From Blasia pusilla (Eukaryota), in contig CM114271.1 of assembly GCA_050084515.1 (NCBI GenBank), positions 12,462,001 to 12,526,000 on the forward strand: a stretch of 64,000 bases of DNA. The letters are read 5' to 3'. Position numbers and translations under genes: made by a program. Below are positions 15,977-50,892 of this stretch, piece after piece. The notes beneath the pieces are model-generated. The model made no database searches, was not told the DNA's origin, and saw nothing but the letters and a program-made list of their open reading frames with translations. Each line of letters starts with the position of its first letter. Positions within the stretch are counted from its first letter, which is position 1.

Positions 15977-18900
15977 TCAATCTTCAATACTCCCCCTCAA
16001 GCTCATATCGATATCTCTAACGCCTAAATCATTTCTAAACATCTCAAACTTATCTTTAGACAATGCCTTTATAAAGATGTCAGCAATTTGTTGATCTATA
16101 CTTATATGCACAAGATCATTTTCTCCTACAAGCACTTTCTCTCTCATAAAATAATAGCTCACCTCAACATGCTTTGTACGAGCATCAAACACAAGATTAT
16201 TAGCAAGCTTGATGCTACTAATATTGTCTACATATATTACACTAGGTCCTAAGTTATTAACACCAATCTCAACAAGTAATCGATGAAGCCACACCGCCTC
16301 ACATGTTGCATTGGTTGCTCTTCTGTACTCAACCTCTATTGAAGATAAAGCAAGTGTAGGTTGCTTCTTTGAAGCCTAACTTATAGATGCGCTTCCCAAA
16401 GTTAATGAATAACCAGATGTGGAGTGTCGATCAAACACGCTTCTTGCCCAATCAGCATCTATGAATCCCTGTAATTGAAAACTCAAAGAAGGTTTAAATT
16501 GAAGCCCGAATTGAATAGAGAATTTCACATACCACATAGTTCTCCTCATAGCATCAAGGTGAGGTTTTTGAGGTGCTTGCATAAAGTGACTCACTAGGCC
16601 AATAGCATAGCTCAAATCTGGTCTGGTTATAGTTAGATAGATCAAACTTCCAATCATGCGCCTGTACATATTAGAATCTGCATGCAACTCTCCTTCATCC
16701 ACTCTTAGCTTCACACTCTGGTCCAATGGTGTAGAGATAGGCTTACAAGCCGTCATACCATATTTTGAAAGCATATGAAGAGCATATTGTCGTTGTCTAA
16801 CCACATGCTCTCTCCTACCTTGATAAACTCAATACCAAGAAAGTACTTGAGTTCTCCCAAATCTTTCATATCAAATTCTTCTTGTAACTTAAGCTTGGCT
16901 TGTCGTACCATTTATTCACTACTCCCAGTAATCAAGAGATCATCAACATACAACACAATAAGAACTGTATGATCTTGTCCTCTCAAGAGATATAACGAGG
17001 AGTCAGAATCAGATATCCTAAAACCCAACTCTTGTAGGACGTATGTAATCTTGCCATACCAAGCTCTTGGAGCTTGTTTGAGCCCGTACATAGCTTTCTT
17101 CAACCCACATACGTGAAATGGAAACTTGTGATGCTCGTATCCAAGTGGTTGAGTCATATTGAAGATTGAGTTACAGTCAAGCTCATGAGATACTTGAACT
17201 GCTATATGTGGTACTCACACGAAGTAGGGAAGCTTAATCTTGGTTAGTCACTTAAGCACGATTATCTTAACTAGGATTAGTTAATCATAGTTAGGCTAAT
17301 TCGAGACCATGGTTAAGGATAGGGTTAGGTTTGCGTGTACATACCCTATATAATTGAGAAGAGGACCAGCCTCCACTCATTCTCTCATTGCAAATTTTAT
17401 TCTCCATGGTGGTGTGTGTGTGTGAGAGCCGTTTTCCACCAGTTATGCTTGTTTAGCAATTTTCCACAGGTCATATATACCTCCTCGTATAGATCTCCAT
17501 TCAAGAAGGCATTCTTGATGTCCATGTGATGTAATATCCACTTCTTACTTACTTCAACCGCAACCACTGTTCTCGTAGTCGCCATCTTTGCAACACGGCT
17601 AAATTTTTCCTCATAATCAATGCCATATTGTTGTGCATAGCCCTTAGCCACCAATCTCGCTTTATATCTGTTAATTTTACCATCTTCATTGTGTTTGATT
17701 TTGTAAACCCATTTGCAACCAATAGCTTCCTTATTAGAAGGTATATCAACGAGCTCCCATGTCCGTTGATGTCTTAATACAACAAGCTCTTCCTCCATAG
17801 CTTCAATCCATTTGACTTTACTTGCAGCTTCTTCAAAAGAACTCCGCTCCTGTTCTTGAAGGATAATCATCATATATGCATGATGTCTCACAAGGAAACC
17901 TTCATTTATGAATCTATGAACTAGATGTGTAACTCTACTGGATCTACAAAGTTGTTGTTCAGAGGTAGATGCCTCTTACACCTAACTCAAGCTCTGACTA
18001 GCGTCAACAGACTGAATACTTACTCTTTCCATCCATGGACTCACAGATTTAAGTGATGAATCTAGGACCTCTCTTAATCCTGCACTAGTACTTGGGGAAG
18101 TTGAAGACAATGTCTGTTGGTTTACAGTCATATTCTTCCCCTTAATAGACGAGTTTAGAGGTGGAATAGGCTCAGATGGAGCATACCATGACTTTAGCTC
18201 ATCAAAGACAACATCGTGATTGATAATAAGCTGCCTAGAGGATAGAATGTAGTACTTATATCCCTTATTTCCATCAGCATAGCCAATGAAGATATATCTT
18301 TCAGACTTGGGGTCTAATTTTTTACGTCTCTCAGAAGGAACATGAGCATGATAAATACAGCCAAATACTTTCAAGAAGGAGAAATCAAGTTTACTTCTTA
18401 TGAAAACTTCGAATGGAGTTTTATCATGAACTCATGTTGTTGGAGTTCGGTTGATTAAGAAGATTGCACGTGCTACAGCCTCTGCATGTTCTTCTCATTC
18501 AGCATAGCTCGTGCCGCTTCAGCAATATGTCAATTATTCCTCTTAGCCACTCCATTTTTTTGTGGAGTGTATCGGCAAGTCACTTGACGTTGGATGCCAT
18601 TCTGACGTAAATACTCATCAAACTGTGTTGAAAGATACTCTCCTCCTCCATCACACACAATTTCAGAATGTGTTATCCAGTTTGCTTCTCTCCTAGAACT
18701 TTGAATGTTTAGAACATTGAGAATACCTCTGACTTGGCTTTCAGAAAGTATACTCATATATACCTACAAAAGTCATCAATAAATGAAACAAAGTATTGGC
18801 AATCACTAAGGCTATGTTGTGATGCTGTCCACACATCATCGTGGATCAACTCCAATATCCTAGATGCTCTTCTACCTTGCTTGGAAAAAGAAATTTAGCT

Positions 18901-20460
18901 TGTTTTCCAAATTGGCAAGCAGGACATACCTCTAACGTAACAGGACTTGCTAATTTAGGGAGTCCTATTACTATATTAGATGATGAAAGACTCTGTAATC
19001 TTTGAAGACTCATATGTTTGATTCTTTTAGGCCACATATTTAGATCTGTGACTTGTTGGCCGGTTTGACCATATATTATTGTTTGAATCTCTAGCATAGA
19101 AACATCTAATTTGAACATTCTATCAGATCTAGTTCCTTTGGCTATCGTAGTCTGATTATCCATTGTTTCAATGAAACAACCATCTGTTTTAAACTTCTCT
19201 TGATAACCTTGTTCTACTATCTGTCCTACAGAGATCAGATTTCTTGCAATGGTAGGAATATAAAGAACATTTCCAAGAGCACAAAGACCATCTGATGCAA
19301 TTGGAACTTTACCAATATGCGTGATATAATGTTGAGTGTCATCTCCTATGAGCACAATTGCAGGATCTTTCACCGGCTCCAAACTACTGAACCATTTTGC
19401 TTGTGAGGTCATGTGATTTGATGCACAAGACTCAATGTACCAATATGTTGTTGAGTCTTTCTTGACCATTGCTCCCATATGATGAGTCATGACAAAGAGA
19501 TGCTCCGTTTGTGAACGTTGTTGTTCTTGGTACTACTCTTCGTGTTGTTGCTCCACATAGTTTTGTTAATGTACGGCTCTTGTTCTTATATCTACCGTCT
19601 TCTTGAAGCAAAACTTTGCATAGTGACCCTTTATCCCACAGTAATTGCAAGATCCAGGGACCTTCTGCTGCTGACCTCGACCCCAACAATTTCCGCCATC
19701 ACCACCTTGTGATTGTGTTTGGTACTGGTTTGTAGTTGATTGAGTGACGTTATATTGAGTGTCTCTTCGTCCATATGTTTGATATCCACCACGACCACGG
19801 AAGCTTGTGCCACGACCCCTGCCTCAGTTTGATCCATAACCTGCAAATAACGCACTCTCTTGCAGACTAGACGAGTTATCGATGCCTACTAGGCGCATCT
19901 TTTTACTGATTAACAGTGGGACTAACTCTTGAAAGGTTGGATATTTCTCTCTTATAAACATAGAGGTCTCAAAGGACTTGTAATCCTTTGGATGGCCTTG
20001 AAGAGAGAACAAAATCATATCATCATCTTCTATTGTCACTCCAATGCTATTCAACTGATCAACAATATATCTAATATTCAAAATATAATCATTGATGCTT
20101 TGTGATCCTTTCCTCACTTCGTTCAATTTTCTATTTTAATTGAAGCTTTCTGGCCTTTCTAGATATCTGGAACTGCTTTTCCAATGCATCCCAAGTTTCC
20201 TTCTGAGTATCAACATCTTAAATGTGATTTATCATTGGTGAACTGATCGTTATTGAAATGTAGTGCATTACTTGCCTTGTGTGTTTGTTCCAAGCGCGAG
20301 CATTCAAGTCTGTTGAGTCACCTTCTGGCTTGGCCTCATCACCTGTGACAAGCTCCCATAGTTCTTGACCCATGAAAAATTGTTTCATGCGAAACTTCCA
20401 GATATTGTAGTTCTGCTTATGTAGCTTCTCACCTGTGATTGCTACTGAGGAATATTCCAT
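15977..20460 (-). pseudogene. Copia gag-pol pseudogene
   Basis: Gag NYNIWKFRM, CCHC knuckle CNYCGIKGHYAKFC (~19610-19650), protease WYIESCASNHMT, integrase CDGGGEY / YTPQKNGVAKR, RT YKARLVAKGY / YVDDLLI, RNase H YVDNISSI / RTKHVEV / QIADIF. Fragmented by stops, frameshifts and the nested LTR. Confidence 0.95.
17157..17468 (+). mobile_element. Solo LTR of the same Copia family nested antiparallel inside RT
   Basis: 312 bp, reverse-complement homolog of the flanking LTRs (TATTGAAGATTGAG...TTTTCCACA). TSD AGTCA / GGTCA. Splits RT between EEVYMT and QPLGY. Confidence 0.95.
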
Positions 20461-21999
20461 GACGAACGATTTCACTCACAAAAATATTATTTCAGGCTCT
20501 CTACTACTCTAATTGAAGCAGAGATCACTCCTACATAGAAATCGACCTGAAATTTGCCAAATTTGATCAACTGTATGAAAAAACTAGTCGAAATTGGCTT
20601 GTAGAGAGCAACTGCACAACTTTTCTTCACTAATTGCACTTTCTTACACTGAAATTGCTACTGCATCAGCTCAGAATGTCAAAATTGAGCAATTTTGGAT
20701 ACGTTGGAAAGATCTTGACGAGCTCTACAAGATGGTTGGAACTAACCTTGGATATTATTCTACCGTTGCAGACCCAAATGGCTAAATCGACCAGGAAAGC
20801 CTTCAAAAATGCCTCCAAAGTTTTATCATCGTCAAAGCTCCATCTGAAATCTGCACCCACTGAGCTCTGAATAAAATTTCCTCCTCTCGAACTGAAATTG
20901 TGCCTTCTCTTGCTTCTCTTATCTCCTCAAATACCAAAAATTTCAAGTGATTTTCTCATATTGCTCTAACACAATGTGGAAAATTGCTAAAGAAGCATAA
21001 CTGGTGGGAAACGGCTCTCACACTCACACATGACCATGGAGAACGAAATTTGCAATGAGAGAATGAGTGGAAGCTGGTCCCCTTCTCAATTATATAGGAT
21101 ATGTACAAGCAACCCTAACCCTAAGCTTAACCATAGTCTCGAGTTAGACTAACTGTGATTAACTAACCCTAGTTAAGATAATCAGGCTTAACTGACTAAC
21201 CAAGATTAAGCTTCCCTACTTTGTGTGAGTACCAAATGTAGCAGTTCATGTGTCTCATAAGCTTGACTGTAACTCAATCTTCAATAAATCTAAGACTTCT
21301 TGATGTCCAAATATCATGACTAAATATGATATCTTGTGTTTAGGTGATTGTATTTCATGACAATGATATATGTTTTCTAGTAATATGTATGTGAGACATT
21401 TAGTACTACCTTTTTTTTCTAATTCCAACTAAGGTAGGTTAGTAACTATCACACTTGATATAGCAACTCTAATGAAGTCTAAAATCAATTTCCTATCTTG
21501 AATTACTATATTAATTTGAGCACTTGGCCTCGACTTTAGATATTAGAATATCATTTTGATGTATAATAATAATATTTCTATTAATACTCTTCATTTTTTA
21601 CTGATAAAAATTCAATTAAGTATAATATCGTAATGTAAAACTTGAATATCATAATAATGTTAAATTTGTAAAATTCATGGCAATGATTCACTTGTATATG
21701 AGTTGGCATATAAAATTTTGTAGAAATATAGTAAAGCCTATGTATAGTAGGACCATCATATGCAATTTCAAATATGAGTCCTTTTTTGTATCTCCTTTAT
21801 AAGGATTTATGACTTTATATAGTTTGGGAACTTGATGGAACTTTAGTTCACTATAATACTACATCGATGTTAACTTATTAAATATGAAAAGAGCAAGCTC
21901 ATTTAAAGGATTGTACTATCCAAGAGACATGGCAAATCAAATTATGAGAAAGAAAAATGATATTGCACATTATATATGGTAAGGTATGTGAGAGGTTTA

Positions 22000-23250
22000 G
22001 AGATGAATGAGAATTTTTTTGAGTCCCAGTATTTCTTGCATTTAGATCATCTTTGAAATCGCCTCTTCTATCGCTAATACGTTCATACATAGGTAATAGA
22101 TGTAGTACGGGGAGATTTTACAATGATCCATTGTACTTCCTTTTGGAGGGAGAAATTAAACCAATTGGGAAAACAAGAATAGGAGATACCACGCATTGAC
22201 ATTAAGTTTTTGTGGTATCATGAGCTAACCTTTCTCATGCGAAAGCAATGCTCTTTTGGTGATGGGGGGAGAGGAATATGAATATGTGTGTAGAGTCTAG
22301 GACATGGGAGATCGGGATGGAAAGAGCAAAGGAGATCATTTTGGGTTAACCATGTCTAAGCAATTCTAGTAGGAGGTGGTATAGAGTTAGGGATTGAAGG
22401 CTCATGCATGGATCAACAATATCACTGATGTCTTTTGATTCTAGTAGGAGCAAAGTTTTTACAACAAAATATGCAATAAAACTTTGGTATAAATGTAGAA
22501 GAATAAGAGCTACAAGGGGAAGAGATGAGAGATGAATGAGATGATGATGGAAAATGATGTGGGGATAAGTAAGTTGGAGAAGCAAGAGGAGGAAGAGGAG
22601 TGATTCCCATTCATAAGATGAGAGTTGGAAGCAAGGGTTCACATAAGATATACTAGTAAGTTGCCTCTACAATGCACGGGAAATAAAAATTTGTTTGAAG
22701 AGCTTTAGAAAGTGTATAGCCTATGAAGGGACTAATGATGTTCCATATAAATTCAGATATTTTTCTTGCTCCTTGTAACATACTTAACATTTTCTTGCTG
22801 CCCAATTGCCATGTGTCAGACAAAGAGGTGTTTGCAGATCAAGAAGGCACTCTTGAATAATAATAATATAGATGAGGATGACAAAGTTATAAGATTCATT
22901 AGTAATGGATTGAGATTATGATGAATTGGAAGAGATAGAGAGAGGGTAAGAGAATGATGGAAGAAATGTAGAGAGTGTGATGGATATATGAGTATTGGGA
23001 GGAAATTGGTGAGATGTACGATGAGGAGGGTGACCAAGAGAAGAAAATATGACCAAAGGAGGTATGTAAAAGTAAATAAGCGAGATGATGGATTGTCCAA
23101 CTCCATGTTAATGGAACCAAAAGTATACATGTCATGCAAGACAAGTGCAGATATAATGATTTGTAATAAAGTGAATGTTTAGGGATAATGGCCATAATAA
23201 AAGGAGTGGAATTCATCCATACTAGATTTAGATTGAGGAAATTAAGGCTA
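22000..23250 (-). mobile_element. Highly decayed non-LTR retrotransposon fragment (possibly CRE-like)
   Basis: 22240-22330 visibly aligns with 49680-49775 (AAAGCAATGCT...GGTGATGGGG...TAGGACA...GGATGGAAAGAGC). Purine-rich plus strand; no intact domain. Confidence 0.35.
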
Positions 23251-26200
23251 GAAAAACTCGAATTTATGATTTAAAATCACTAAGTTGTTTAGAAGAAGAG
23301 GAGACCTATATGATATAAAAAATAGTGACTTAGTAATATGAATTTAGAATGTTCTTAAGAAGATAGCAAATGTAGGCAACGTAGCACGACAAGTCTTGAA
23401 AAAGTGAGAATTTCAAAGATATATGAGAGAAATTGATTGAACATGACCTTGTGTACAAAAATAGGCACCTACAAAGAAGGAAAAAAAACTACAAAACCTA
23501 CTTATATGAAAACAATCGGCTTGCCAAGCCAATATTAACAAGACCAAGCACATCGATGCTTCAAGAGAAAATAACGGAGGAAATTGAAAACACCAATAAA
23601 ATGGATATAAGGAGAAAGTGAAAACCACCTACCAATAATAAATATGAACAGATAAGATCGCAATGTTGGGCCAAATATTAAGCAAAAGATTGAGATACTC
23701 AAGAGGAATCCTTTGATCCAATTGTAACCAACAATCACACTATAAAAAAAATATAAAGTGTGAAACCGTATTGAGGAATCTATGAGCATATTCATAGAAG
23801 GAAGGGATGCAAAGATCCCAAGAACTTTAACAAATCACAACATAAGTGGGAAAAAGAAAGACCCAAATTTAAGTTTGAGAAGATGATGAGTATGCAATTG
23901 AAAAGATTGGAATCTTCCATGCATATGTTCTCTCCGTCTAAAACTTCCAACTAGTGAACAATTGATATAGGTTATGCGAATTTTGTTTCATAGTATTAGG
24001 CCTAGATTAGGGCAAGTAAATTCTCCCCTAAGTGGAGAATTTGAATTTTCTTCCTTAATTTGAAATATTAGCTTATTTCCCCATATTCTATTCATTGAAA
24101 TCAAGTTTATTACATTAATTTCCAATCATGACACCTTAATGGTTATCTGATATGGATGAAAATAAAATAAATTAATGGACATATGCACCCTATAATGATG
24201 AATAGTTCAAATTATGTACCATTATAATAAATATGTAATTAGAAATTTAAATTATTTAAAATTATTTAAGAAAATCAACCTTAACCGATCTATCACGTCT
24301 TTTAGAATAGATCGGTGAGATCTAATAAAACCCCTTCATGAGTAGTGGAGGACAGGCTCAGTAGGTCGAGGATGACCTACTGAGGCCCCGGGAAACCTGA
24401 GAGAGCACATTTCCCCTTCGTTTCGGCTCATTTGGAGCCATATTGAGGAACTTACTATTTTAGGTAAGTACCATTTTGAGTATATGATCGAGTTTCTATT
24501 TTTGATAAGTAGCCCTTGACCTCCTACATCAGGTCAAGATCCAAAGAGGTGACTTGGAAGCATAGGTTACCATGAAGAAAGTTTGGGAGAGGGGAGGGGT
24601 ATACCTCAAGGAGAGAGAGCTTGAGAGCTCATTCTTTCTTTGTTGAACCTCTTGGCATGAGGCGGCGGAGTTATTGTCTTGCTTGCCTTGTGTGTGTTAC
24701 CCAAACTTCTCATTAGGAGAGTGGGTTTGGTTTGACATTGAGAGAGACATGTGAGAGTGCACACATGTGAGAACTATGGTGTTGTGAGAGAGATTGAATC
24801 TTATTTTACAAAGAGAGAATGAGTGAGTGAGAGAGCTTCGTGGGGAAGCTCGCTGGTCACTCGCTGGTTTTGCAGGTTGGGGATCGTATCCCCCGTTCAG
24901 TAGTTCATGGGAGTGCTTACCGGAGCAAGAGCCGCTTACTTGTGATGTTTCCTTTGCCGATTTTTTGTGTGGAAGAGTGGCGCACGAAAGCGCTGCCCAA
25001 TTTTTGATAGGGATTGAGTATGGGAGCAGGTTGCCCTATGCCGGTGCTCTTAGAAGCACCATGTAGCTTGCTGATTTGTATTTTCACAGGGTTTATATTT
25101 TGGTTGAGAGAAATCAGCGCAGCAGCGCTGCCAAATTTTATGTAGGAGAAAGAGACATTGGGCTTTACGACAATCTCCATCAATTTTTACTGGAATCTTT
25201 GATTCAAAATATTTTTTGATGTCATCGTAGATCATGAAGTTGTGCACGCTGTGCAATAGATGGTGTGCAATTTGGAGTTGCGAGCAAAGAGTTATGCTCA
25301 ATCTTGCAAAATTGCCATTGCTAGGCAATTTTTAAGGTTAAATTGTTCAAACCCTAAACCAGCCGCCACGTCGGCGGCGGCTGTCGCCGTCATAGTCACC
25401 GTAAACAATTTCTCATCAATGATCAATTGTCACCCTCAATGGTCAACCATCAATTGTCATTGTCTACGTTTGGCCATCACCATCAACCGTCCACCGTCGG
25501 CCGCCGCCGAGCGCTACTCAGAGCCGCGTTCATCCGTTGTCCACCCTTTGGTTGCCATTGCAGCCATTATGGAGTGGAGGGTCTTCCACGACGATGGTTG
25601 ATTCTCTGACTTGCTTCGCCACCACATACTTTGTTTTGGCCGCCACTGTCATCGCAATTTCGTCATCAACCACTGATGGCACATGACCTCAGGTTATGGT
25701 GTTTGAGTTTTCATTTCATGCTGCTATGTGGTGATTGGTAGCCGCTCGACGACGATTGAGTATCGTGCTGTGATGCCCTTAGCCGCAACGCGCCACCGAT
25801 TGTTGCATCGTGCCGCTCGTGGCCGCACCGCACCGTCTCGATCGCGGAGCCGCTCATTCACTAAGGAGCAGAGCGTGTGAATTGCTGATTGAGGAGGGTA
25901 TGCCGCCAAATGCCGCACTCCATTCTCGAGTGTCGTGTCGTTTGTAGCCGTTCCGTGCCGCCAATGCCGCATCGGACCGTTGGACCTGCACCGCACACCA
26001 AGGAGGTTTGAGCGGCGTGAGTACAAGAGGAGTAGGACTTGTTGATTGGAGGAGTGTGGGATGTCCAGAGTTGAGGATGGTTTGTTGATGAGACGATAGA
26101 TCAGTGATTTTCCGTACCACGCTGCTTGTTGCCGCATAGCACACATCTCAGTGAGAGAGTGTAGATTGAGTGCCCCATGTTTAGTTTGAGTGATTGAGGG

Positions 26201-26373
26201 ATTACTCACGAGATTGAGAGTGATCATGCGAGAGGGGCACGAGGGCCATCACGGTGTCCTTTCAGGATTTTGAGAGGCGAGGTAGTGGACTTGAGAGTAG
26301 CTCTTGAGGGTTTACCCGAAGTGGTGCAAGGTTTCAAGGGTCTCCACGTGAGAGACCACCTCAATCTCCTTCT

Positions 26374-27560
26374 ATGTCATCTTCAGACCAGGAGGAGCGT
26401 ATAGAGGAGTGTGTGAGTGATCCACCGTACACATTGAGTGGTCCTACCAGTTGGGCGTACGAGATGGACGACCGGGATAGAAGACCGCGTAAGTTTTCGG
26501 GTGCTGTAAGCACTATAGAGCTACACAACTTCATTGCGGAGTTTAGGAGTTGGTGTGACTCACAACGGGCTAGGAACTCTAGAGAGTTCAAACCGTTTAC
26601 AACATGGAAAGGTATGTTCCAGCATTTAGAGGGGGAGCCCATGGACGATTACCATGAGTTCTCCCACAGATATGCCCAGGAGATTGAGGCATGGCAACTC
26701 TACTCTGACCCACACTATTTGTCATGGATGGAGACATTCCCAAATGAGGAGGAGGACTCAGGAGAGGCTAATTCCTCTTCCACTAGTGATGTTTTAGGAG
26801 GGGTCACTCGCACTGGAGCAGTTGCACCGTCTAGTCGGGTTCATCCCAGGTTCAACCCTGTGGTTGAGTTCTTTGTTGAGTTGAGGGCGAGCTACCAAGG
26901 GGTACGGACCGAGAAGTTGCGGAGCATCCATGACGTCCAAAGGATTCCGGGTGAGAGTTTGCATGAGGCTTACACTTGCTTGCGCCGGTTGATCAACGTC
27001 ACTCAGGAGGTGACAGAGGCTCAGGCTATCTAGTCATGGTACGCGATGTTGGAGCGGACCCTACGGACACGAGTGCGGGAGGGGATGCTCCTTATGAACA
27101 CCTCCCCTATGTTGAGAGATATTTTAAGGACCACCGAGAACATTGAGCGCAACATGGCAGAGGAGAGCATAGCCACCATGGGTTCTCTGCGAGAGCAGTC
27201 ATGATTGTCTACACCACCTGTGCAACGTGGACTCCGAGTCCACGTTTGCTGTACAGGTGGCAGCACGAGCTGTTAGAGGATATCGGGAGGCCATGCCACA
27301 GAGACTTGCGCCTTCATATGCGGCTCAGCAGCAACTGCCTACGATTACTTGTTGGTCATATGGTGGAGTCCGTCATCAGTGTGATTGCACTCGTCAGGGC
27401 CATGGACGTGTGCCTGAGTATGGAGGAGGAGATGGTGCTGCACCAGGAGGTTATTAGTGTGACTATTGTCAAAGGTATCGTCACACACACGCCAGGTGTT
27501 TCAGTTTACATCCTGAGTTATGTCCGGACCAAGGGCCAGAAAGGGCACCAAAGCGAGTAG
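26374..27560 (+). pseudogene. gag-like region with two zinc knuckles
   Basis: ORF 26374-27033 (RKFSG..QRIPGESLHEAYTCL) continues past a stop. Knuckles CWSYGGVRHQCDC (~27350) and CDYCQRYRHTHARC (~27458-27500). Confidence 0.8.
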
Positions 27561-28043
27561 TCGGTCCGGGTGGGCCTAGAGATCGTGCACGCAGGTGGTC
27601 TCGTTGGAAGACGAGGAGCTGGAGTTGCCTGACAAGGTGGTGGAGCTGTCCATGGAGGAGGTAGAGTCCCACCACCTAGACGCGTTGAGGGAGACGCTAG
27701 GCGTGAGGCTAGGATGGCTGCTCAGATACATCAGCTACATGAGCAGATTGTCGCTATGGCATTGAGTTTACCCGATGTCGGATCCATAGCATCGACATCA
27801 TATGGAGCAGCCAGAGATGTGGAGGATCCTGGTTGGATGTGCGGGGTTGCCCAGATGGAGGCCGCCGTAGTTGTGATGCGTGGAGCAGCCGCAGAGTTGG
27901 ATCCAGAGCGAGGGGAAGCCAAGAAAAAAACTAGGCCTCCTTTGTCTTTCACGTTGTCTGAGGTGATGAGGACCCCATTGATGGGTCCTTATCAAAGTTC
28001 CTAGAGAGTTGGTGATGTTGTTGGTGTGTAGGCATGGAGGGCT

Positions 28044-28790
28044 ATGGGAGAAGCAAGTGCAACGACTCCTATTGCTGATGCTCAGGAGAGGCATGTGTCG
28101 AGCATGTTGTTGGTGGCGGCCTCCGTTGTGTACCGCGCTCCTTTATTTTTTGCTTCCGATGTTATGACGTTGGAAGGTACGCCCGCCGAGGTTTTTCAGC
28201 TGGCCGCTACGCTATGTGAGCGTGGAGTTGGAGTTCTTGCATCATGTTCAGAGGTGATTGCAGAGGAGGTGATGGACCTGCCCTTGGAGCGGATGCTCGG
28301 GCCGTCCACGTCAGATTCATGGCAGGTTGCGGCTGCTAGGATGGCGAAGATGCCCGCTAGACCCGTGATAGAGCGTGCCATGACTTCTCCTGGTGTTGTG
28401 TTTTTGGATAACCGAGGAGAAGTCTTCCAGTTGGTGAGTCTCGGAGGTAGAGCTTTTAGTCTGCAGCCCGTCTTGTTGGATTCAAGAGCGCAACCCTTGA
28501 TGTTGGGGAAAGCGTCATTCAGAGGATTGGGCTTCACGAGAGCCGATGTGGAGCGTTGTCCATTCCAGATACAAACATCCTTGGGTGGAGTGAGTACCAC
28601 ACAGTATATCACCAGTCATGAGGTCGTAGTGAGGATTCGCCCGAGACATCCTACAGATGAGTCCATGGTGCAAGCCAAGGCGATAGTGACTGATGTAGAG
28701 TCCTACAACGTCTTGGTTGGTGGAGCAGTGTTATACCCGATGGGGTTTTCCCTAGATTACTGGGAGGAGTCAGCATCCTACAAATGGTAG
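28044..28790 (+). pseudogene. Retropepsin (aspartic protease) region
   Basis: VLLDSRAQ (cf. LDSGA) and the downstream YNVLVGG motif. Confidence 0.75.
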
Positions 28791-29185
28791 TCAGATGATG
28801 GGTGCCTTAGCTCATTACCCGCTTGATGCAGAGGTGCAGTGATCAAGCGACGGCCGAGAGAGATGGCCACCTCAGCAGCATTTAGCAGTGTCATCACTTG
28901 GCCTAGTGATCTGATTGAGGGACTTGTCCATGCATGAGATTTTCTTGTTCCTGACATTTCTATGGAGAGGAGTGACATAGTAGCCGCATCAGTCCGTGGA
29001 GGAGAGGTGCCGCTTTGGGCTCAACTGAGGAGCTCCGACCCTTAGCCACTGAGCATGTGCAGACCGCGTGGAGTGAGACGCTTGCACTAGAGTGTGACGG
29101 GTGAGAGGAACCCAAGATAGGCAAGAGTTCTGCTATAACCCCTTTGCACACCACCCCAATTATATGGTGCATCCCAGAACAGGGT

Positions 29186-30120
29186 ATTCGGGTGTTGGAT
29201 CTCTTTGGGGTGATCAACACTAGGTTAGCTGTTGTTTTGCACGCTCGAGTGTGCATGCAGCAGTACCTATATGTGAAGATTGATGATGTTGCGAGGCACG
29301 CTTCACTTCACCATATGGCGTTGTTATGCCTCTATTTTCATGACTTGTTGTCTCCGTCCACCATTCACGGTTACTAGAGTTCCTTACCGAGGGACATTTC
29401 ATTGTTGGGGGCGCAGGACTTGGAGCGAGTAGGGACCATAGACTTGGTTATTTCTGGTTGGCCGTATCAGGGCCAATCGAGTGTTGGACGAGGTAGCGGG
29501 TTAGCTAACACTTGGTCCAGGTTGTTTTGGGAGATGATGCGGATCTTGCGACATTTACATGAGCATCAGCCTCGTTCTCCAGCATACATTTGGAGAATGT
29601 GCCAATTTTAGGCAATTCGAGGTCCCGCGTGGTGACGAGTGCACATCAGGTGCGTGCATGGATCGGCTGGTAGTGTTGTTAGATGTGGCGAGTATAGGTT
29701 CTAGAGCACACCGCCCGCGTCTTTGGTGGACCAACTTGGTACCACATGAGGTGTTGTAGAGGGCTTTTGCGAGAGTGGAGCGTCCCTCCGATTTGTTGGT
29801 GGTTCTATATTGGATCCGGGCCGTCAATCATAGGCAGTGAGGCACGATGATCGATCGCCGTTGACTGTGGTCAATAGGATTGGCATGCCATGAGCAGCCT
29901 TTCACACATTTATGAGTTTTCCTGCTTCCTATGCATTCAAGGAGGCCGGACTTGGCTTGGTTTGGGATGACCAAGTACAAAAGTTGGTGGAGCCCAGCAC
30001 CGATGAGCGAGAGCGAGCGATGGGATTCCCCACATGAGTGACAGCAGTACTATCACTATCGGAGGCATTACGACGTCATGTCTTGACTCAGGCCTTGGAC
30101 CTGAAATGCTTGATATGGAT
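29186..30120 (+). pseudogene. C5-cytosine DNA methyltransferase domain, DNMT3-like, inside pol
   Basis: Motif I VLDLFGVI (~29192), motif IV IDLVISGWPYQG (PC to PY, TAT at 29465), SRLFWE, motif VI ENV (29593, after a frameshift), motif VIII AHRPRLWWTN (29706), motif IX ERERAMGFP (30005), motif X RRHVLTQALD (30071). Confidence 0.9.
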
Positions 30121-30439
30121 TTTCAGCTAAGAAGTAGCTGAGCAACGTCGTTTGAGGATGCGATAGATCACAAAAGTTGCGTTGGTGAGCCCCATGCCTA
30201 TCGAGACGGTTGAGGCAGTGGCTGGGGGCGAGACCCGAGGAGATCGACATACCAAGGGTTATCGGGAGAGACACCCTTGGACTTCTTGGGATGTTTTGCA
30301 GGTACGCCAGGAGATGATAGCCACAACATTGAGCGTGGTTCCGAGTATTGCACGTGGAAATGAGAGTTCTATTGTCCAAGACGGGGTTGCACCATAGCAA
30401 CCACCGACATCCGCACCGGAGAGTCCTACCGTAGTCACG

Positions 30440-31920
30440 ATGGAGACTTGGGAGCTAGATATGGGCCCTCAGTTGACAAGAGGAGAGCGGCGTCGGATAC
30501 ACCAATTCCTTAGGAGTTATAGGAGTTGTTTTGCATTTAGTATGCATGATTTGGATACGCTGAAGGGTCGAGGGATCCGCATTGAGTTATCGAGTGACAC
30601 GCCGATCTTCCGAGGATCCTACAGGTACAATGACATGGAGAGGGCTCTGATTCAGAGTAGGAGCCAGGACTTAGTTGGAGCAGGACTAGTGGAGATGTCG
30701 CATGGAGAGTATGCATCTACCACTGTCATGCCCTTCAAGAAGGATATGCATGGCAACTGGACGGATAGGCGAATGTGTGGAGATTACCGACCTATCAATC
30801 TACAGACGAAGTCTGATAAGTATGCCATGCCCATCCCTGAGGAGATCTTTGATACGATTGGGCATGCAAAGGTCTTCAGTTCATTGGATTTGCGAGCTAG
30901 ATACCATCGGCTGCCTATCAGATTGGAGGACAGGAAAAAGATGACATTTTGGGGCATCGATCCTCACGGGAAGGATTGTTTGTACCAGTGGCGGTTCTTA
31001 CCATTCGGGTTAAAGAACGCCCCGGTTGAGTTTCAGAGAGTCATGGATAGGATCTTGGCAGGTCTGGATTTTGCTAGGTGTTATATTGATGACATCGTAG
31101 TCTTTAGTGCCATGGTTGAGGAGCATGAGCGACATCTAGAGGAGGTATTTTGACGATTTCAGTTACATGGGCTGAAGCTACATCCACACAAGTGCAAGTT
31201 CTTCTACGACCAGATTGAGTACTTGGGTCATACAATATACCTTGGGGACCTTGGTGTGCAGCAGACAAATGTAGAGGCTATTTCACATATTCCACGTCCT
31301 ACAGATGTGAGTCGAGTTCGTGCATTCATGGGATTGGCAAACTTCTATCGACGGTACGTCAAGGGGTTCAGTTCGATTGCAAAGCCGCTAACCTTGATGA
31401 CCAAGGTGGATCATGAGTGGCATTGGGGGGATGAGCAAGAGAGAGCATTTCAGATGCTCAAGGACAGATTGACGTCCACGCCCATATTGAGGAGATCAAT
31501 CAGGGGGCATCCTTTCCAATTGCATACCGATTGAAGCATGTTGGGGCTTACATCCGTGCTCACCCAACATGATGATGATGGTAGAGAGTTCATGGTGGCT
31601 TATGCTAGTCGCTCGAACAACACTGCAGAGGCAAAGTATAGCTTGTATGAGGGTGAGTGCTTGGCTGCAGTGTGGCTATCGCATATTTCAGATGTTATCT
31701 ATTCGGCAATCCCTTTACCATCATTACTGATCATCAGCCACTTAAGTGGTTGATGGAGTCCGACAAGCTTACAAGGAAGCTTGCAAGGTGGGCTCTTCTG
31801 TTGCAGGAGTATGACTTCCAGATGGTGCATAGACGTGGGATGCTCAACCAAGATGCATATGGTTTGAGCCGTAACCCATGCCCAAGTCAGCGAGATGTGA
31901 CTAGAGCTCGTTGGCATGGT
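30440..31920 (+). pseudogene. Ty3/Gypsy reverse transcriptase and RNase H
   Basis: RMCGDYRPIN, FSSLDL, LPFGLKNAP, CYIDDIVVFS, VRAFMGLANFYRRYV, FQLHTD, VAYASR, ITDHQPLKWL, LARWALLLQEYDF. Confidence 0.97.
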
Positions 31921-32239
31921 GAGAGTGATGAGGAGTTGGTGCGAGGATGGCATGCATCAACCTATTTGGGCTTATTGGCTATGGAGAGCCAGATTGCTGA
32001 GACTTCAATGGCGAGGTTTGATGGAGAGTCCTTAGATCCAGAGGCCGGTGAGGAGACGATAAGTGGTCAAGACATTCACGACGATGGAGTGGTCTTGGAG
32101 TACCTGCGTATTGGCAGCATCGCGAGCACAGTGGGTACTAGAGAGCGGGGTCGGATCCTACAGCGAGCCAGACGGTTCCGGTGGGAGGGCACACATGTGT
32201 TGCGAGTGTGGGAGGATAGTAGAGTGCGTGTAGTGCCTC

Positions 32240-33340
32240 ATCCTTTGCAGAGAGCACGTTTGGTGCGTCATGCCCACGAGGAGTTGGATCATTTTGGAGT
32301 GAAGCGGACGTACAACTTGCTCCAGATTCAATATTGGTGGCGAGGCATGCAAACTGACGTTCAGCAGTTTGTTGCTAGATGCATGGTGTGTGATCGAGTC
32401 TGAGCATCGTTCAATGCTGCAACTCCACAATTGCATCCACTTCCGATCATGAGTTTAGGTTATAGATGGATTCTGGATTTTGCAGGACCTTTGCCTTTGA
32501 CAGAGCACCATAGTCGTTATGTGTTGGTGATGGTTGAGCACTTCTCGAAGTGAATAGAGTTGGTTACATTGCCTGACAAAGCGAGTGAGGTAGTAGCATA
32601 TGCCTTCCTAGATTGAGTGTTGAGTCATTATGGCGCACCAGCTGAGGTTTTGACAGACCCTACCCTAGTCTGTCAACACCTCAGAGTTCCTTGAGGAGTT
32701 TCAGGCCTTGTATGATCAAGCACTGCTCGACCACCGCACTACTTCGCTAGATCATCTTGAGGCAGATGGACTAGCGGAGCGGGTTGTGCAGACGGTGAAG
32801 AGAGGACTACGCAAGTATGGCTTGTAGAGAGGTCACCTAGGAGATTTGGACCTTTACTTGCTGTGGTTGGCGATGGGATACAAAAGGCAGGCATCCTTAG
32901 CGCCTTTCTCACCGTACTTGTTGCTTTATGGTCGAGAGCCAGATTTACATACGGCCATTCGTCAAGATACTGGTGAGGTGTTGAACCTTGATGACCCTGA
33001 TGTATGGATACAATCATGTTCTCAAAGGGCTCAGTTGTTTCGGAGAGTAATGCCCATGGCGTTTGAGAACTTGACGATTGCGCAACATCGGGATACGTTG
33101 AGGTATGCGACTATTCGAGGAGGTGCTTATCGACCTACTATCTTGAGGTTTCATCAGGGAGATTATGTCTACTTGCACTAGATGGAACCCACAACGTTGG
33201 ATGTGATTGTAGGGCGCACCATCTTGAGATTGCGTGAGGTTTTCCCATCCGGTGTTCTCTTATTGGAGGGACGCGATGGTATGGTTTGGAAGGACCATGT
33301 GCATAACTGTGCGCCATCTCATCTTCCGAACATTAAAGGA
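32240..33340 (+). pseudogene. DDE integrase (HHCC zinc domain, catalytic core, C-terminal domain)
   Basis: HEELDHFG..YWWRGM..CMVC; LDFAGP; GAPAEVLTD; ADGLAERVVQTVK; SPYLLLYGREP. Several stops and a local inversion at 32642-32684. Confidence 0.93.
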
Positions 33341-33377
33341 ACAATTGATCCGAGCTTAGCAATAATTCGTGCAAGCT

Positions 33378-33520
33378 TGCGGTGTATGTTGTGTGGTTCC
33401 GCCCGTGATGCAGCCACTATGCTAGTCTGTGATGGGTGTTCGAGAGGATGGCATATGGCATGTTTGACGCCACTTCTCACTAGGTTTCCTTAAGGACAAT
33501 GGATGTGTCCCAGATGTACA
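33378..33520 (+). pseudogene. PHD finger at pol C-terminus
   Basis: CMLC..MLVCDGCSRGWHMACLTP..(stop)GQWMCPRC gives C4HC3 with the typical W before the last Cys pair. Confidence 0.92.
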
Positions 33521-36375
33521 TAGAGTAGGTAGTTCTACATTCCGACTTGTGTCTATGATATGGATGACAAGAAGGCGACTAACGATGGGGCCACATGAGC
33601 ACCTGGCCTTCTTGCTCTTAGCGTCCCAGAGATGTATGTCATGGTAGGTAGAGATAGATGGCTATGAGGAGTTAGAGGAACCTAACCACCAACTAGAGGG
33701 GCGATTGGAGATATTTTGGTACTTCTTGTCTTGTTGTTTGGATGCCATGAGTTAGCATGGGATCTTGTGTGTTTATGTGTGTGTTCGGTGACAATGATGT
33801 ATGTTTTGTAGCGATGTGTATGTGCTCGAAAATTGTCACATCTTTTAGGATATATCAGTGAGATCTAGTAGAGCGCCTTCGTGAATAGTCGAGGACAGGC
33901 TCACTAGGTTGAGGATGACTTTCTGAGGCTTCGAGAAACCTGAGAGAGCACGTTTCCTCTTCGTTTCGGCTCATTTGGAGTCATATTGAGGAACTTACTA
34001 TTTTAGGTAAGTACCATTTTGAGTATATGATCGATTTTCTATTTTTGGTAAGTGGTCCTTGACCTCCTACATCAGGTCAAGAGTCAAGGAGGTGACTTGG
34101 GAGCATAAGTTACCATGGAGAGAGCTTGGGAGAGAGGACAGTATACTTCAAGGAGAGAGAGTTTGAGAGCTCATTCTCTCTTTGTTGAACCTTTTGGCAT
34201 GAGACGGCAGAGTTATGGTCTTGCTTGCCTTGTGTGTGTAATCCAAACCTCTCATTAGGAGAGTTGGTTTGGTTTGACATTGAGAGAGACATGTGAGAAC
34301 TATGGTGTTGTGAGAGATATTAGATCTTATTCTATTGGAAATATTTTGGTATTTCTTGTCTCGTTGTTTGGATGCTATGAATTAGCATAAGATCTTACGT
34401 GTTTATGTGTGTGTTCGATGACAACGATATATGTTGTGTAACGATGTGTATACGTACGATATATCATATTTCAAATATTTTTTTAAAAAAAAATAATTTA
34501 ATTCAATAATATAAATTATTACTTATATTCTATTTTATTCATTATAATGAATGAATTCTTAATATAATATTAAATGAAACCATATTTTTTAATCAATTAG
34601 GATGCTAGTATGTTGATTTATACTCATATTAAAAAGTACCTTCTTTATTCCCAACCCTCCATGTGCATAGAATTAGAGAAACCTTTTTAAAACCCTTATA
34701 TTTTTGACATTTTATTGTTAATGAATGTCATTTAAAAATAAGCAGATTAAGGAGAAAATCTCACCCGTGGGGAAGCATACTAGTTTAGATTGTGGTTGCA
34801 TTTTAGGGTTGCTTTCAACCATTTGCATTTTCATGCGAACTGCGAATTCCGCGATAAGTGCGTGGGTTTCGGTGTTCGACTGACTGTTCGCTAGGTCCGT
34901 CCGAAAATATCACATCATTCGCCGATACGTATCGACGAAGGATGACTCGTCAGCACTCGTCGAAGGTCGGATGAAGGATGAATCACGCGAAAGGTCAGGC
35001 ATGGGACTCCAGATCGTGTTCGTCGGCAGTCGAATACGCATAGATGAACGAAAATGTTTCTCCTGACGAATACTGTTTGCTGGGGTAAAATCAATGTTTC
35101 GTCCGAGATCCAAGAGGTGGGTAGAATAAAACTTCGAGCGTGTCTCCGAGGATAATCCAATGCGGCTAAGAATCCCATAGTCGGTTGTCAATTACAACCT
35201 CAAACCGTGGCAAAAGTCGGTGCCAAGTGTCAGCCAATGCTCATGAGAGTTAAGATCTCCGAAGGTCTTTGCGCTTGAATTCATTACCGTGAACGTTTAA
35301 GGGCCTAAAGGAAAAGTTTTTCGGTTGGTGAGGGCCAATGCATGATGAATGTGATGCCGCGATGCCGCGATGCCGCGAAAGCGATTGGTTTGGTAGGTTC
35401 AAGCGATCGGCGCTTACACAATGCAGCCCGTCGTTTGATGAATTGGATTGCTTGGAATCACTGGAAGCCACACTCAAACTGTGGAAACGCGGTGATGCGA
35501 TAAATGTACAGGGGGAAGAAGCCGCATCAATGCTTGCGCATGGGCCACCTCATTCAATGGGCGCAGCAATTAATTTGCTTTTCGGCGGAGAGATCGGCTC
35601 CTACGTTGTCCTATGGCTCAACATCGCGGGATACAACAGGATTCAACGGAATTTTAACCATTGAACCCTTCATAACTCTGCCACGACTTGAGTCCGTAGG
35701 TACATGGCAAAGGTCTACTTCATGCCCTACGTGTTGTGTTGCGTATTAATTATCAGTAAGCAAGCGCGATCTCCGGATTCCTCACAAAACTGCCGATCCA
35801 AAAGATGTCGCTGATAGATGTTACGGAAACCTCAAAGTACCGTAGGCCTTGCAGGTTTGAAACCCTTCACAAGTAGTACCGGCCTTCTCTCAAATGTATC
35901 TGGCCAATGCAGCAGTTTTGATCTGTTATAAGGTTCGTAGTTCAAAGATGATAGTGTGCTTGGAGAAAATCGAGGTCCAGTAACATCAGCATCAGTAAAC
36001 TAATTAATTCAGAGCTGAGAGTTGATCTTTGGGCAGCGAGTTTGGGAAATTAATAAGAAATGGACATCGTGTGGATGAGTCTCCATGCGTGAAATTTACG
36101 GACAGGACCTGTCTACCTGACAATGTGTGCCTCTACCACTGATTTTATTTACGGTTCTGTATGGACTGTATACTCAATCTTCCTAGCTTCGACGGAGCTA
36201 GCAGATCTTCCTAGATCAACGCGGATCAGGGCAGAAGGAGCTTCAATTCGTCAGTACTGTGCTCGCATAAAGATGTGACTCTCTCTCTCTTTACACCCAT
36301 CCCAGTCTCAAGCACCGTCCAACCAGGGCGTGGGGTCTATGGTCGCAAGGCTACGACAGGCACTACTTAATGAGT

Positions 36376-36379
<4 letters not shown>

Positions 36380-36408
<29 letters not shown>
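36380..36408. repeat. (CT)n microsatellite
   Basis: Direct reading; a second (GA)n run lies at ~37002-37028. Confidence 0.95.
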
Positions 36409-36410
<2 letters not shown>

Positions 36411-37001
36411 AAATGGCAACGTGGTTCCCAGCGAGGTTCACCAGGCCTGGAGTGCACAAGTTGTTGGAAGTTTGAACTGATGCTACACTTTATGGATAGC
36501 TTGGGCGATGTGGGGCCGATGTGGTGAATGCTACTCTCATGCAATAGAACAACGACCAAGTCATCCAACAAACGCTCGTTAGGCAAAAGAGAGGGAGAAG
36601 CGGCTACTGAATGACATATGTAAAGTCTGCACACGGGATCCCCATGTCGTTATCTGCGGGACCTAACTTCAAAACAATGAGCAAATTCTCTAAGTCGCTT
36701 CAGTCCGCTCCTCACCGCAACTGAAGTTCTGATCTACTCATCCCTGATTCTGCGAGGAAAGAGAGTGAACCATTGATTGATCTTGGGAAAGAGCAATCAG
36801 TCATGTAGTCAAGCCGAAGTTCACGGAAATCAGAGGGGCCATGCATGGAATACGATAATCCGAGGCCTGCAGAGTATGGAGTAGTGATAACCGTTGCAGG
36901 CAGGGAAGGAAGGAAAGCCAATAAGGACACTGTCCTAGGACCCCGTTGGCCACGGGGGGCCGATGAGAATATGAGGGAGGAGAAAGAGCATGAATGCAAG
37001 A

Positions 37002-50418: not shown

Positions 50419-50892
50419 TGTCGTGCGAATCCACATCGTCATACAACATACATCGCTGACATACCATACTCACATACATACATAACATAGACGAGAGCAT
50501 CCACAAACATAAGTGTACCACAACTGAAGTCCGTGAAAGATCTACTGTCATAAAACACGTATAGAATCACATACAATCGAGCCAAACCCACTCCACGATG
50601 GGAGAATCTAGGTCGAAGCTTGCGGGAAACACCATAGCCAAGAGCTCTACTCACTACCAAGGCTAACTCCCAATGCAACAAGCTCAACTCAAAGAACTGA
50701 CTGTTCTTTGGATGCACTCCACACTATATCCTCCAACCTAAGAGCGGGCCCTACTGGGAAAGTCACCCCCAACTGAGTAACCCCCAACTCTATGTATGAA
50801 ACCGCATTTCTACCTAGCCACTACGATCCTACATAAGGTATGGCCTCTACTAGCACACTATACTCTACGACATAATCCGTATGGTCATGACA
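50419..50892 (-). mobile_element. Solo terminal repeat (A+B type) related to the DNMT-Gypsy element
   Basis: Minus strand ends GTCAGCGATGTATGTTGTATGACGATGTGGATTCGCACGACA, which aligns without gaps to the end of B2 (34420-34461). It starts TGTCAT (alternative start TGTCGT at 50872). TSD ambiguous. Confidence 0.65.

Follow-up and report, generated by a model that had tools for sequence, protein, structure and literature searches.

A DNMT3-type methyltransferase domain as a probable family trait of a decayed Gypsy-type retrotransposon in the land plant Blasia pusilla

Retrotransposons that carry a cytosine methyltransferase (MTase) of the DNMT3 type, an enzyme by which such elements are normally silenced, were reported in 2018 from dinoflagellates and from one charophyte alga (de Mendoza et al. 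2018, PMC5890265). According to the accessible parts of that report, the repeat layout A-coding-B-A-B is the one found in DIRS elements, and the Gypsy-Dnmt3 elements of Klebsormidium combine this DIRS repeat structure with Gypsy domains (figure legends of PMC5890265), their MTases falling in a Dnmt3-related clade. That such an enzyme methylates the element's own cDNA or the neighbourhood of its insertion is put forward there as a hypothesis of the authors. Here, an element of this kind is described in a land plant. A 64,000-nucleotide stretch of the Blasia pusilla genome (GenBank assembly GCA_050084515.1, contig CM114271.1, forward-strand positions 12,462,001 to 12,526,000; this whole stretch is referred to as the window, and all coordinates are counted from its first letter) contains a decayed Gypsy-type element of 10.2 kb at 24293-34459, which includes a C5 cytosine MTase domain at 29171-30148. 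This domain is very probably the MTase part of a dead Gypsy-type copy, the family of which carries a DNMT3-type MTase as a regular coding part; for the identity of the domain taken by itself, the confidence is slightly higher still.

The domain had been noticed in an original prediction, made from the DNA letters, as a C5 MTase with its motifs in canonical, non-permuted order on the strand of pol, between the protease and the reverse transcriptase (RT). This order is borne out by a three-frame translation of 29105-30204, by tblastn and by the Pfam match to RT, which starts at 30398. On the plus strand, motif I (LDLFGVINTRLA) at 29195-29230 is followed by motif IV (GWPYQG) at 29456-29473, motif VI (LENVP, in which ENV is kept) at 29590-29604, motif VIII (GSRAHRPRLWWTNL) at 29697-29738, the motif IX region at 29909-29938, the segment ERERAMGFP at 30005-30031 and the motif X region at 30080-30112; apart from the Pfam and PDB matches, these motif numbers are the ones that we take to apply. 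The motifs are spread over three reading frames. Four colinear tblastn pieces are obtained with an open relative, P0003 (29057-29590, 29590-29667, 29673-29801 and 29804-30148; combined expectation value (E) 1.8e-98), so that the coding sequence is interrupted by three frame breaks, near 29590, 29670 and 29802. At two of these breaks, a length difference of one letter from the window copy is seen in 24% and 42% of the genomic reads, i.e., those two breaks are not common to all siblings. The absence of introns, which had also been claimed, holds because relatives without introns align colinearly with the domain.

The window copy is a dead member of the C5 MTase class, as had been predicted. The catalytic Pro-Cys of motif IV is absent, being replaced by Pro-Tyr (29462-29467, with the Tyr codon of the catalytic position at 29465-29467), while the Glu of ENV is kept; six stop codons lie within 29186-30120, and eight are met along the longer path 29021-30340. 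Compared with the RT, the MTase has decayed further, and it is roughly similar to the rest of the element: along the tblastn path, in-frame stops amount to 8 in 439 codons for the MTase, 8 in 765 for gag and protease, 2 in 504 for RT and RNase H, and 6 in 475 for the integrase with its PHD finger. Of the earlier claim that decay in the domain equals that in the rest of pol, the part concerning gag/protease and integrase/PHD therefore roughly stands, whereas stops are denser in the MTase than in RT/RNase H. The Pfam profile PF00145 matches 29378-29611 (E 9e-6, 25.8 bits, cut-off 22) and, on a longer read-through, 29021-29590 (E 5.9e-5, 23.1 bits); relatives score 45-46 bits.

Relatives of the domain are numerous. 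The stop-masked frame-1 translation, used as query, retrieved 29 proteins of about its own length and 17 that are longer; many of these proteins contain PF00145. In the open relatives a protease lies upstream and an RT downstream of the MTase, and PCQ, ENV, AHRxRxWWTN and ERERAMGF are intact. One of them, P0062, is a single open frame of 2188 amino acids that comprises CCHC, protease, DNA_methylase, RVT_1, RNase H and integrase. When P0003 was searched exhaustively, the matches numbered 4268 cluster representatives with a limit of E<=1e-3 and 269 with a limit of E<=1e-30; the 150 representatives that were listed all belong to the element family. When 257 proteins were compared, the MTase was found before the RT in 57, between RT and integrase in 115 (referred to as the RT-MTase class) and alone in 83, and the orders were mixed in none; the remaining two have no MTase match or are a read-through made in this analysis. 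In 15 diverse representatives, with a mean column identity of 31%, the Cys of PCQ, the Glu of ENV and both Arg of motif VIII are invariant. Invariance of catalytic residues across such distant members would argue for a working enzyme in live copies.

Named carriers of the MTase include Marchantia polymorpha (19 gene models), Sphagnum fallax, S. troendelagicum, S. jensenii and Calypogeia fissa, as well as Mesostigma viride, Haematococcus lacustris, Scenedesmus sp. and Hariotina reticulata. No protein named as Klebsormidium appeared among the matches. Scenedesmus, Haematococcus and Hariotina, from which the named proteins of the RT-MTase class come, are chlorophytes; the algal order RNase H - MTase - integrase is found in P0045, P0047, P0055, P0071, P0077 and P0099. 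At the DNA level, a search with a single protein (P0002, 84-88% identical to named Sphagnum proteins) identified 14 sibling loci that carry the MTase.

Two trees were calculated, with every break of the window copy written as X: one with FastTree from 155 MTase rows and one with IQ-TREE from 69 rows, i.e., all 43 rows outside the RT-MTase class and 26 of the 112 rows within it (two named, 24 random). The window copy falls in an 11-row clade that contains every named bryophyte row (Marchantia, Calypogeia and Sphagnum; support 99 and 99), and its nearest row in both trees, with 62% identity, is that of Calypogeia fissa. A single branch (support 99 and 98) separates the RT-MTase-integrase class from the arrangement with the MTase between protease and RT. 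This nesting among named bryophytes supports the proposal that an MTase-bearing lineage persisted in a land plant.

The original prediction also assigned the domain to the DNMT3 type, and searches with PDB sequences, with the family profile and with the fold all place DNMT3A/B/C first. The window fragment itself matches PDB sequences weakly (best E 0.027), 26 of its 27 matches being DNMT3A/B/C; the motif VIII fragment alone gives no match to PDB sequences. With P0003 as query, the PDB values are 6e-12 for DNMT3A, 1.4e-9 for DNMT3B, 1.2e-8 for tobacco DRM, 1.6e-4 for DRM2 and 3.5e-4 for HaeIII, and DNMT1 is absent among the 52 matches. A profile of the 15 representatives gives 1.5e-21 for DNMT3A, 8.7e-21 for DNMT3C, 3.6e-20 for DNMT3B, 3e-12 for DRM and 3.4e-9 for HhaI. 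An AlphaFold model of P0003 has a predicted local distance difference test (pLDDT) score of 87.6; among the Foldseek matches listed for it, to rank 48, only DNMT3A/3B/3C are found, with E down to 7e-20 and target-normalised TM-scores of 0.79-0.84 for chains that consist of the catalytic domain only. Because the alignments are colinear, the domain is not permuted as in DRM. A Protein Atlas search with P0003 gave only generic PF00145 clusters, one from streptophytes and two from phages.

The abundance of the family in the source species was estimated from one genomic Hi-C run (X18), and its transcription from three RNA runs, all carrying the species label of the window and aligned to 22000-36500 at a likeness of at least 80%. 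A total of 652,544 of the 12,895,792 sampled genomic reads aligned. The summed depth was 4477 and 5367 in the MTase bins, 6984 in the protease and 10,273 in the RT, compared to 1.6-5.3 in three flank bins (34584-36035), which places the MTase about a thousand-fold over the flank and indicates a family on the order of a thousand copies. The element accounts for roughly 64 of 1934 million sampled letters, i.e., about 3% as a rough figure from the depth table. In the three RNA runs the depth was about 30-240 over the whole element (27-71 over the MTase bins) and zero in the flank; the first mate was almost wholly on the minus strand, and most reads were less than 95% alike to the window copy. Thus, the family appears to be transcribed on the sense strand. 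The observed/expected ratio of CpG is 0.70 in the element, 0.65-0.66 in the flanks and 0.40 in a neighbouring Copia element, which gives no clear signal either way.

The element in which the domain resides runs, on the plus strand throughout, from a repeat unit A1 through leader, gag, protease, MTase, an in-frame TAG, RT, RNase H, integrase and PHD finger to the repeat units B1, A2 and B2, and twelve relatives used as tblastn queries matched no second copy in the window. The order protease, RT, RNase H and integrase is the canonical one of Ty3/gypsy, with the MTase inserted after the protease. The terminal repeat A1 (24293-24808) forms the 5' end and is 89.8% identical to A2 (33836-34334), with 448 matches and 51 mismatches, 39 of which are transitions. 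B1 (33704-33829) is 88% identical over 118 nucleotides to B2 (34334-34459), which forms the 3' end and is followed by AT-rich flank; reads from siblings cease to match past 33829. The sequences that precede A1 and A2 are unrelated. A canonical structure with two long terminal repeats (LTRs) is thus absent, the repeats being split as A ... B-A-B. This layout is complete in the two sibling loci L006 and L013, which have enough flank; L007 shows A ... B and then breaks off, and L010 is rearranged. The genomic reads agree with this layout: they are heterogeneous ahead of A (agreement 0.42) and beyond B (0.40), and reads in which the end of A is joined to the start of B are frequent. At 21335-21393, a weak likeness to B (80% over 59 nucleotides) was considered as a lost 5' B unit and set aside, as L006 and L013 also begin with A. 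Inspection by eye revealed neither an obvious tRNA-type primer site after A1 nor a clear target-site duplication at the flanks of the element. Among the papers listed by a literature search, none showed Gypsy-type elements with split direct repeats.

The leader (24809-26478) has no tblastn match and no coding similarity was found in it; it is regarded as part of the family because its genomic read depth (3400-4100) resembles that of the rest of the element. A decayed gag in two frames follows at 26479-27523 (tblastn to residues 9-257 and 282-355 of the Marchantia protein P0033, at 48% and 38% identity), without a Pfam match. The C-terminal gag and aspartic protease region is found at 27705-29018 (tblastn to residues 395-822 of P0033). 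At 28473-28493 the active-site motif of the protease reads DSR in the window copy, and is of the DSG type in relatives, which read LLDSGAQPLMLGK; Pfam Asp_protease_2 matches the corresponding region of P0062, and the protease region of the window copy has no Pfam match. The MTase at 29171-30148, which is supported by Pfam, tblastn and PDB sequence matches, is separated by its tail and the TAG codon at 30395-30397 from the RT at 30398-31675 (YIDD at 31082-31093; Pfam RVT_1 E 1.5e-18, and tblastn). RNase H follows at 31657-31917 (RT_RNaseH E 8e-14, and RT_RNaseH_2), then the zinc-binding domain of the integrase with the start of the DDE core at 32071-32658 (Integrase_H2C2 E 2.8e-16), and the C-terminal part of the integrase at 32681-33517 (tblastn to residues 1328-1608 of P0045), which includes the PHD finger at about 33383-33517 (E 3.6e-10). 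Over the integrase core, Pfam rve reaches E 5.6e-6 and 27 bits, below its cut-off of 32.6. The tyrosine recombinase that would be expected for a DIRS or Ngaro element is not found; Integrase_H2C2 and rve are present instead.

Some further observations concern this part of the element. The PHD finger follows the integrase at the position of the chromodomain in chromoviruses, and is common to the algal relatives. Many genomic reads depart from the window copy at 32659, and joints on opposite strands cluster at 32661-32696; the integrase frame breaks at 32659-32696, which probably reflects a small rearrangement private to the window copy. A DDE integrase is combined here with split direct repeats such as those of tyrosine-recombinase elements.

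The in-frame TAG is shared by a large part of the family. TAG CAA CC(A/C) is found at the corresponding place in the window (30395-30403, with CAA CCA) and in 9 of the 14 sibling loci (L001, L002, L004, L006, L007 and L010-L013); of the other five, two do not have the pattern and three stop short of the site. Fourteen proteins with a Met start, 1228-1437 amino acids long, terminate 48-119 amino acids past the MTase, and their tails are conserved within subgroups. In the bryophyte-type clade the first open reading frame (ORF1) would thus encode gag-protease-MTase and close at the conserved TAG, and RT-RNase H-integrase would therefore need read-through, which is how we infer that ORF2 is translated. 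The more distant P0062 is a single continuous frame. The context of the TAG may resemble the leaky-stop type of tobacco mosaic virus. The original prediction had asked whether PCQ and one continuous protease-MTase-RT frame are restored once other copies are considered; PCQ is intact in the open relatives, whereas the continuous frame is not a family-wide property, given the conserved TAG after the MTase.

A possible sequence of events in live copies may be outlined from these elements. ORF1 would yield a Gag-protease-MTase precursor in Gag-like amounts, to which occasional read-through of the TAG would append RT-RNase H-integrase-PHD. The protease would release the MTase within the particle or the cell, where the enzyme could methylate new cDNA or the DNA around the integration site, while the PHD finger of the integrase might read a histone tail and thereby influence the choice of integration site. 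The methylation of cDNA, or self-methylation, in this scheme is a hypothesis to which a rather low probability is given.

Several observations weigh against the view that the element belongs to a family with a regular, DNMT3-type MTase. The profile check that the original prediction had proposed was answered by one fragment above the cut-off; the other three MTase pieces individually have no Pfam match, and they are assigned via homology within the family. All 14 sibling loci are decayed, with a longest open frame of <=332 amino acids, so that the openness of land-plant members rests on predicted proteins, some of them with inferred introns. The depth over the MTase is about half of that over the RT, which means either that this region has diverged further or that the MTase is missing from some siblings. 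As 502,456 of the 652,544 aligned DNA reads fit only partly and 419,286 are less than 90% alike, and the library is a Hi-C library, the copy number is an order of magnitude only. The sense-strand assignment assumes the usual type of stranded library, and the RNA reads may stem from dead copies. The DNMT3 label follows from ranking by sequence, profile and predicted fold rather than from a phylogeny. Kinship to the Klebsormidium element is argued from architecture and repeat layout. Finally, in the accessible parts of PMC5890265, the Klebsormidium domain, the one Gypsy-Dnmt3 domain with a published test, produced no methylation in yeast; human DNMT3B likewise produced none, and the authors' verdict was inconclusive. 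A DNMT3 borne by a DIRS element did methylate CG de novo in yeast (PMC5890265).

The negative yeast result with the Klebsormidium domain also speaks for the strongest alternative, in which the MTase of the family no longer methylates DNA and has a structural, RNA-directed or other role in the particle. RNA methylation was raised by the same authors for another class of elements (PMC5890265, accessible parts). Against this, the yeast outcome was equally negative with human DNMT3B, the catalytic Cys, the Glu of ENV and the Arg of motif VIII are invariant in the 15 divergent representatives, and the P0003 model superposes on DNA-bound DNMT3A; loss of DNA methylation in the family is thus considered unlikely.

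It could further be argued that the domain is an orphan C5 MTase of bacterial or viral origin that merely resembles DNMT3. Motif IV, GWPCQ in the open relatives, is nearer to PCQ, which we take to be the form in bacterial enzymes and DNMT1, than to the PCN of DNMT3 (seen in the alignment with DNMT3A), and the features in the Protein Atlas rank the phage MTase clusters level with the streptophyte cluster; as noted, the DNMT3 placement is one of ranking. In these rankings, however, DNMT3A/B/C are ahead of bacterial enzymes by about 8 orders of magnitude with a single sequence and by 12 with the profile, the Foldseek matches listed to rank 48 are all DNMT3, and the alignments of motif VIII and of the C-terminal part agree with DNMT3A. 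With the published Klebsormidium elements placed in a Dnmt3-related clade (PMC5890265, accessible parts), an orphan origin is improbable.

Still less probable is that the Marchantia and Sphagnum proteins are domesticated host genes and the window copy a decayed paralogue of such a gene. Several of these proteins are chromosomal gene models, some of them named DNA (cytosine-5-)-methyltransferase, but many copies have gag and protease attached, the window copy lies between element repeats together with RT, integrase and PHD finger, and the read depth points to a copy number in the order of a thousand. A one-off capture, in which a host DNMT3 mRNA was retro-copied into a single Gypsy copy such that the MTase is no part of the family, would fit the greater decay and the halved genomic depth of the MTase relative to the RT, but is hardly credible in view of the order protease-MTase-RT in 57 proteins from other sources (including Marchantia, Sphagnum and Calypogeia), the depth of 4477-5367 in the MTase bins against 1.6-5.3 in the flank, the lack of repeats or boundaries around the domain and the 14 sibling loci that carry it. 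The original prediction, which had named sibling elements without the domain and separate insertion boundaries as signs of such a retrocopy, is in this respect upheld.

Elsewhere in the window, a remnant of the A-B repeats at 50419-50710 on the minus strand belongs to a second, Sphagnum-like sibling family and has no coding part beside it. It is 76-91% identical at the DNA level to repeats of sibling loci, including the metagenome locus L006, and may be the equivalent of a solo LTR. A decayed Ty1/copia element is found at 15977-19532 on the minus strand (RVT_2, a retroviral SH3-like domain, Pol beta-barrel and gag-pre-integrase). An open frame at 12387-12974 strongly matches DUF7869 (E 3e-34) and is probably part of another mobile element. 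At 36036-36500 the RNA depth is about 800-900 on both strands and the genomic depth about 800, with CT-rich loose ends, which may point to a repeat or to low-complexity sequence and not to a gene. A tRNA scan of the 64 kb found no genes, and Rfam gave no matches at the gathering score.

As to the role of the enzyme in the element, the charophyte enzyme gave no clear result in the accessible parts of PMC5890265. The family is multi-copy in land plants, among them peat mosses and the liverwort Marchantia polymorpha, which is amenable to genetics, and this presence, together with the apparent transcription in the source species, makes the role of the enzyme testable in plants with methylome tools and mutants. 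With gag-protease-MTase as ORF1 and a conserved stop behind it, the enzyme would be produced in capsid-like amounts, a point of relevance to the mechanism. It is also suggested that the capture of the MTase predates the Klebsormidium lineage. In the widest, and speculative, form of the proposal, an old Gypsy-DNMT3 family that spans the green lineage, occurs in two domain orders, has survived into land plants and accounts, in the source species, for about 3% of the genomic letters sampled would still be transcribed and would produce an active Gag-protease-MTase that marks its own cDNA or insertion neighbourhood, thereby adding de novo methylation to a bryophyte genome.

Gypsy-DNMT3 elements as such were known already from Klebsormidium; new are the member in a land plant and the MTase at the end of the putative ORF1, before the TAG. 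Such elements are mentioned for "streptophytes", without detail, in the accessible parts of PMC12344493 and of a bioRxiv preprint (10.64898/2026.05.21.726589). No statement on their occurrence in bryophytes was found in the searchable text of the literature, although supplements of later papers may list them, and a search with six Marchantia gene identifiers returned no papers.

The closest described system is KnitGypsy-Dnmt3 of Klebsormidium nitens, which, as described in the accessible parts of PMC5890265, shares with the present element a Gypsy-type RT, RNase H and integrase, an intronless and unpermuted DNMT3-related domain within the coding region, A-coding-B-A-B repeats in place of plain LTRs, and conserved catalytic residues in open copies. 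The shared repeat layout supports the predicted link to charophyte elements. In contrast to KnitGypsy-Dnmt3, which is present in few copies in K. nitens (PMC5890265, accessible parts), the family described here reaches a very high abundance in its source species, its host is a land plant, and its closest relatives are found in liverworts and mosses. In addition, the MTase here closes a gag-protease-MTase ORF1 before a conserved TAG; the likeness to KnitGypsy-Dnmt3 is one of published description. SymbioDIRS-Dnmt3 of Symbiodinium is similar, in the same parts of that report, in having a DNMT3-type domain in the Pol frame, A-coding-B-A-B repeats and two coexisting domain orders, but it uses a tyrosine recombinase, whereas the present element has a DDE integrase with an HHCC zinc domain, and the RT class differs (PMC5890265).

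Among the algal sequences, the pol of Scenedesmus sp. PABB004 (P0099) and a Haematococcus lacustris protein (P0252) have an MTase that is homologous over its full length, including the stretch from motif VIII to motif IX, as well as a Gypsy-type RT and integrase and a PHD finger after the integrase. Their MTase is located between RNase H and integrase, in contrast to that of the window family, which is found between protease and RT. Plant DRM2 belongs to the same DNMT3/DRM superfamily and appears among the second-tier PDB matches, but DRM is circularly permuted, such that it aligns only over motifs I-IV or from motif VI onwards, separately, while the domain described here is unpermuted. The catalytic domains of animal DNMT3A/3B/3C provide the best matches in both sequence and fold and are colinear from motif I to motif X; they differ from the present domain in that the identity is about 20-23%, PWWP and ADD are lacking here, PCQ replaces PCN, and the stretch between motifs VIII and IX is longer in the present domain.

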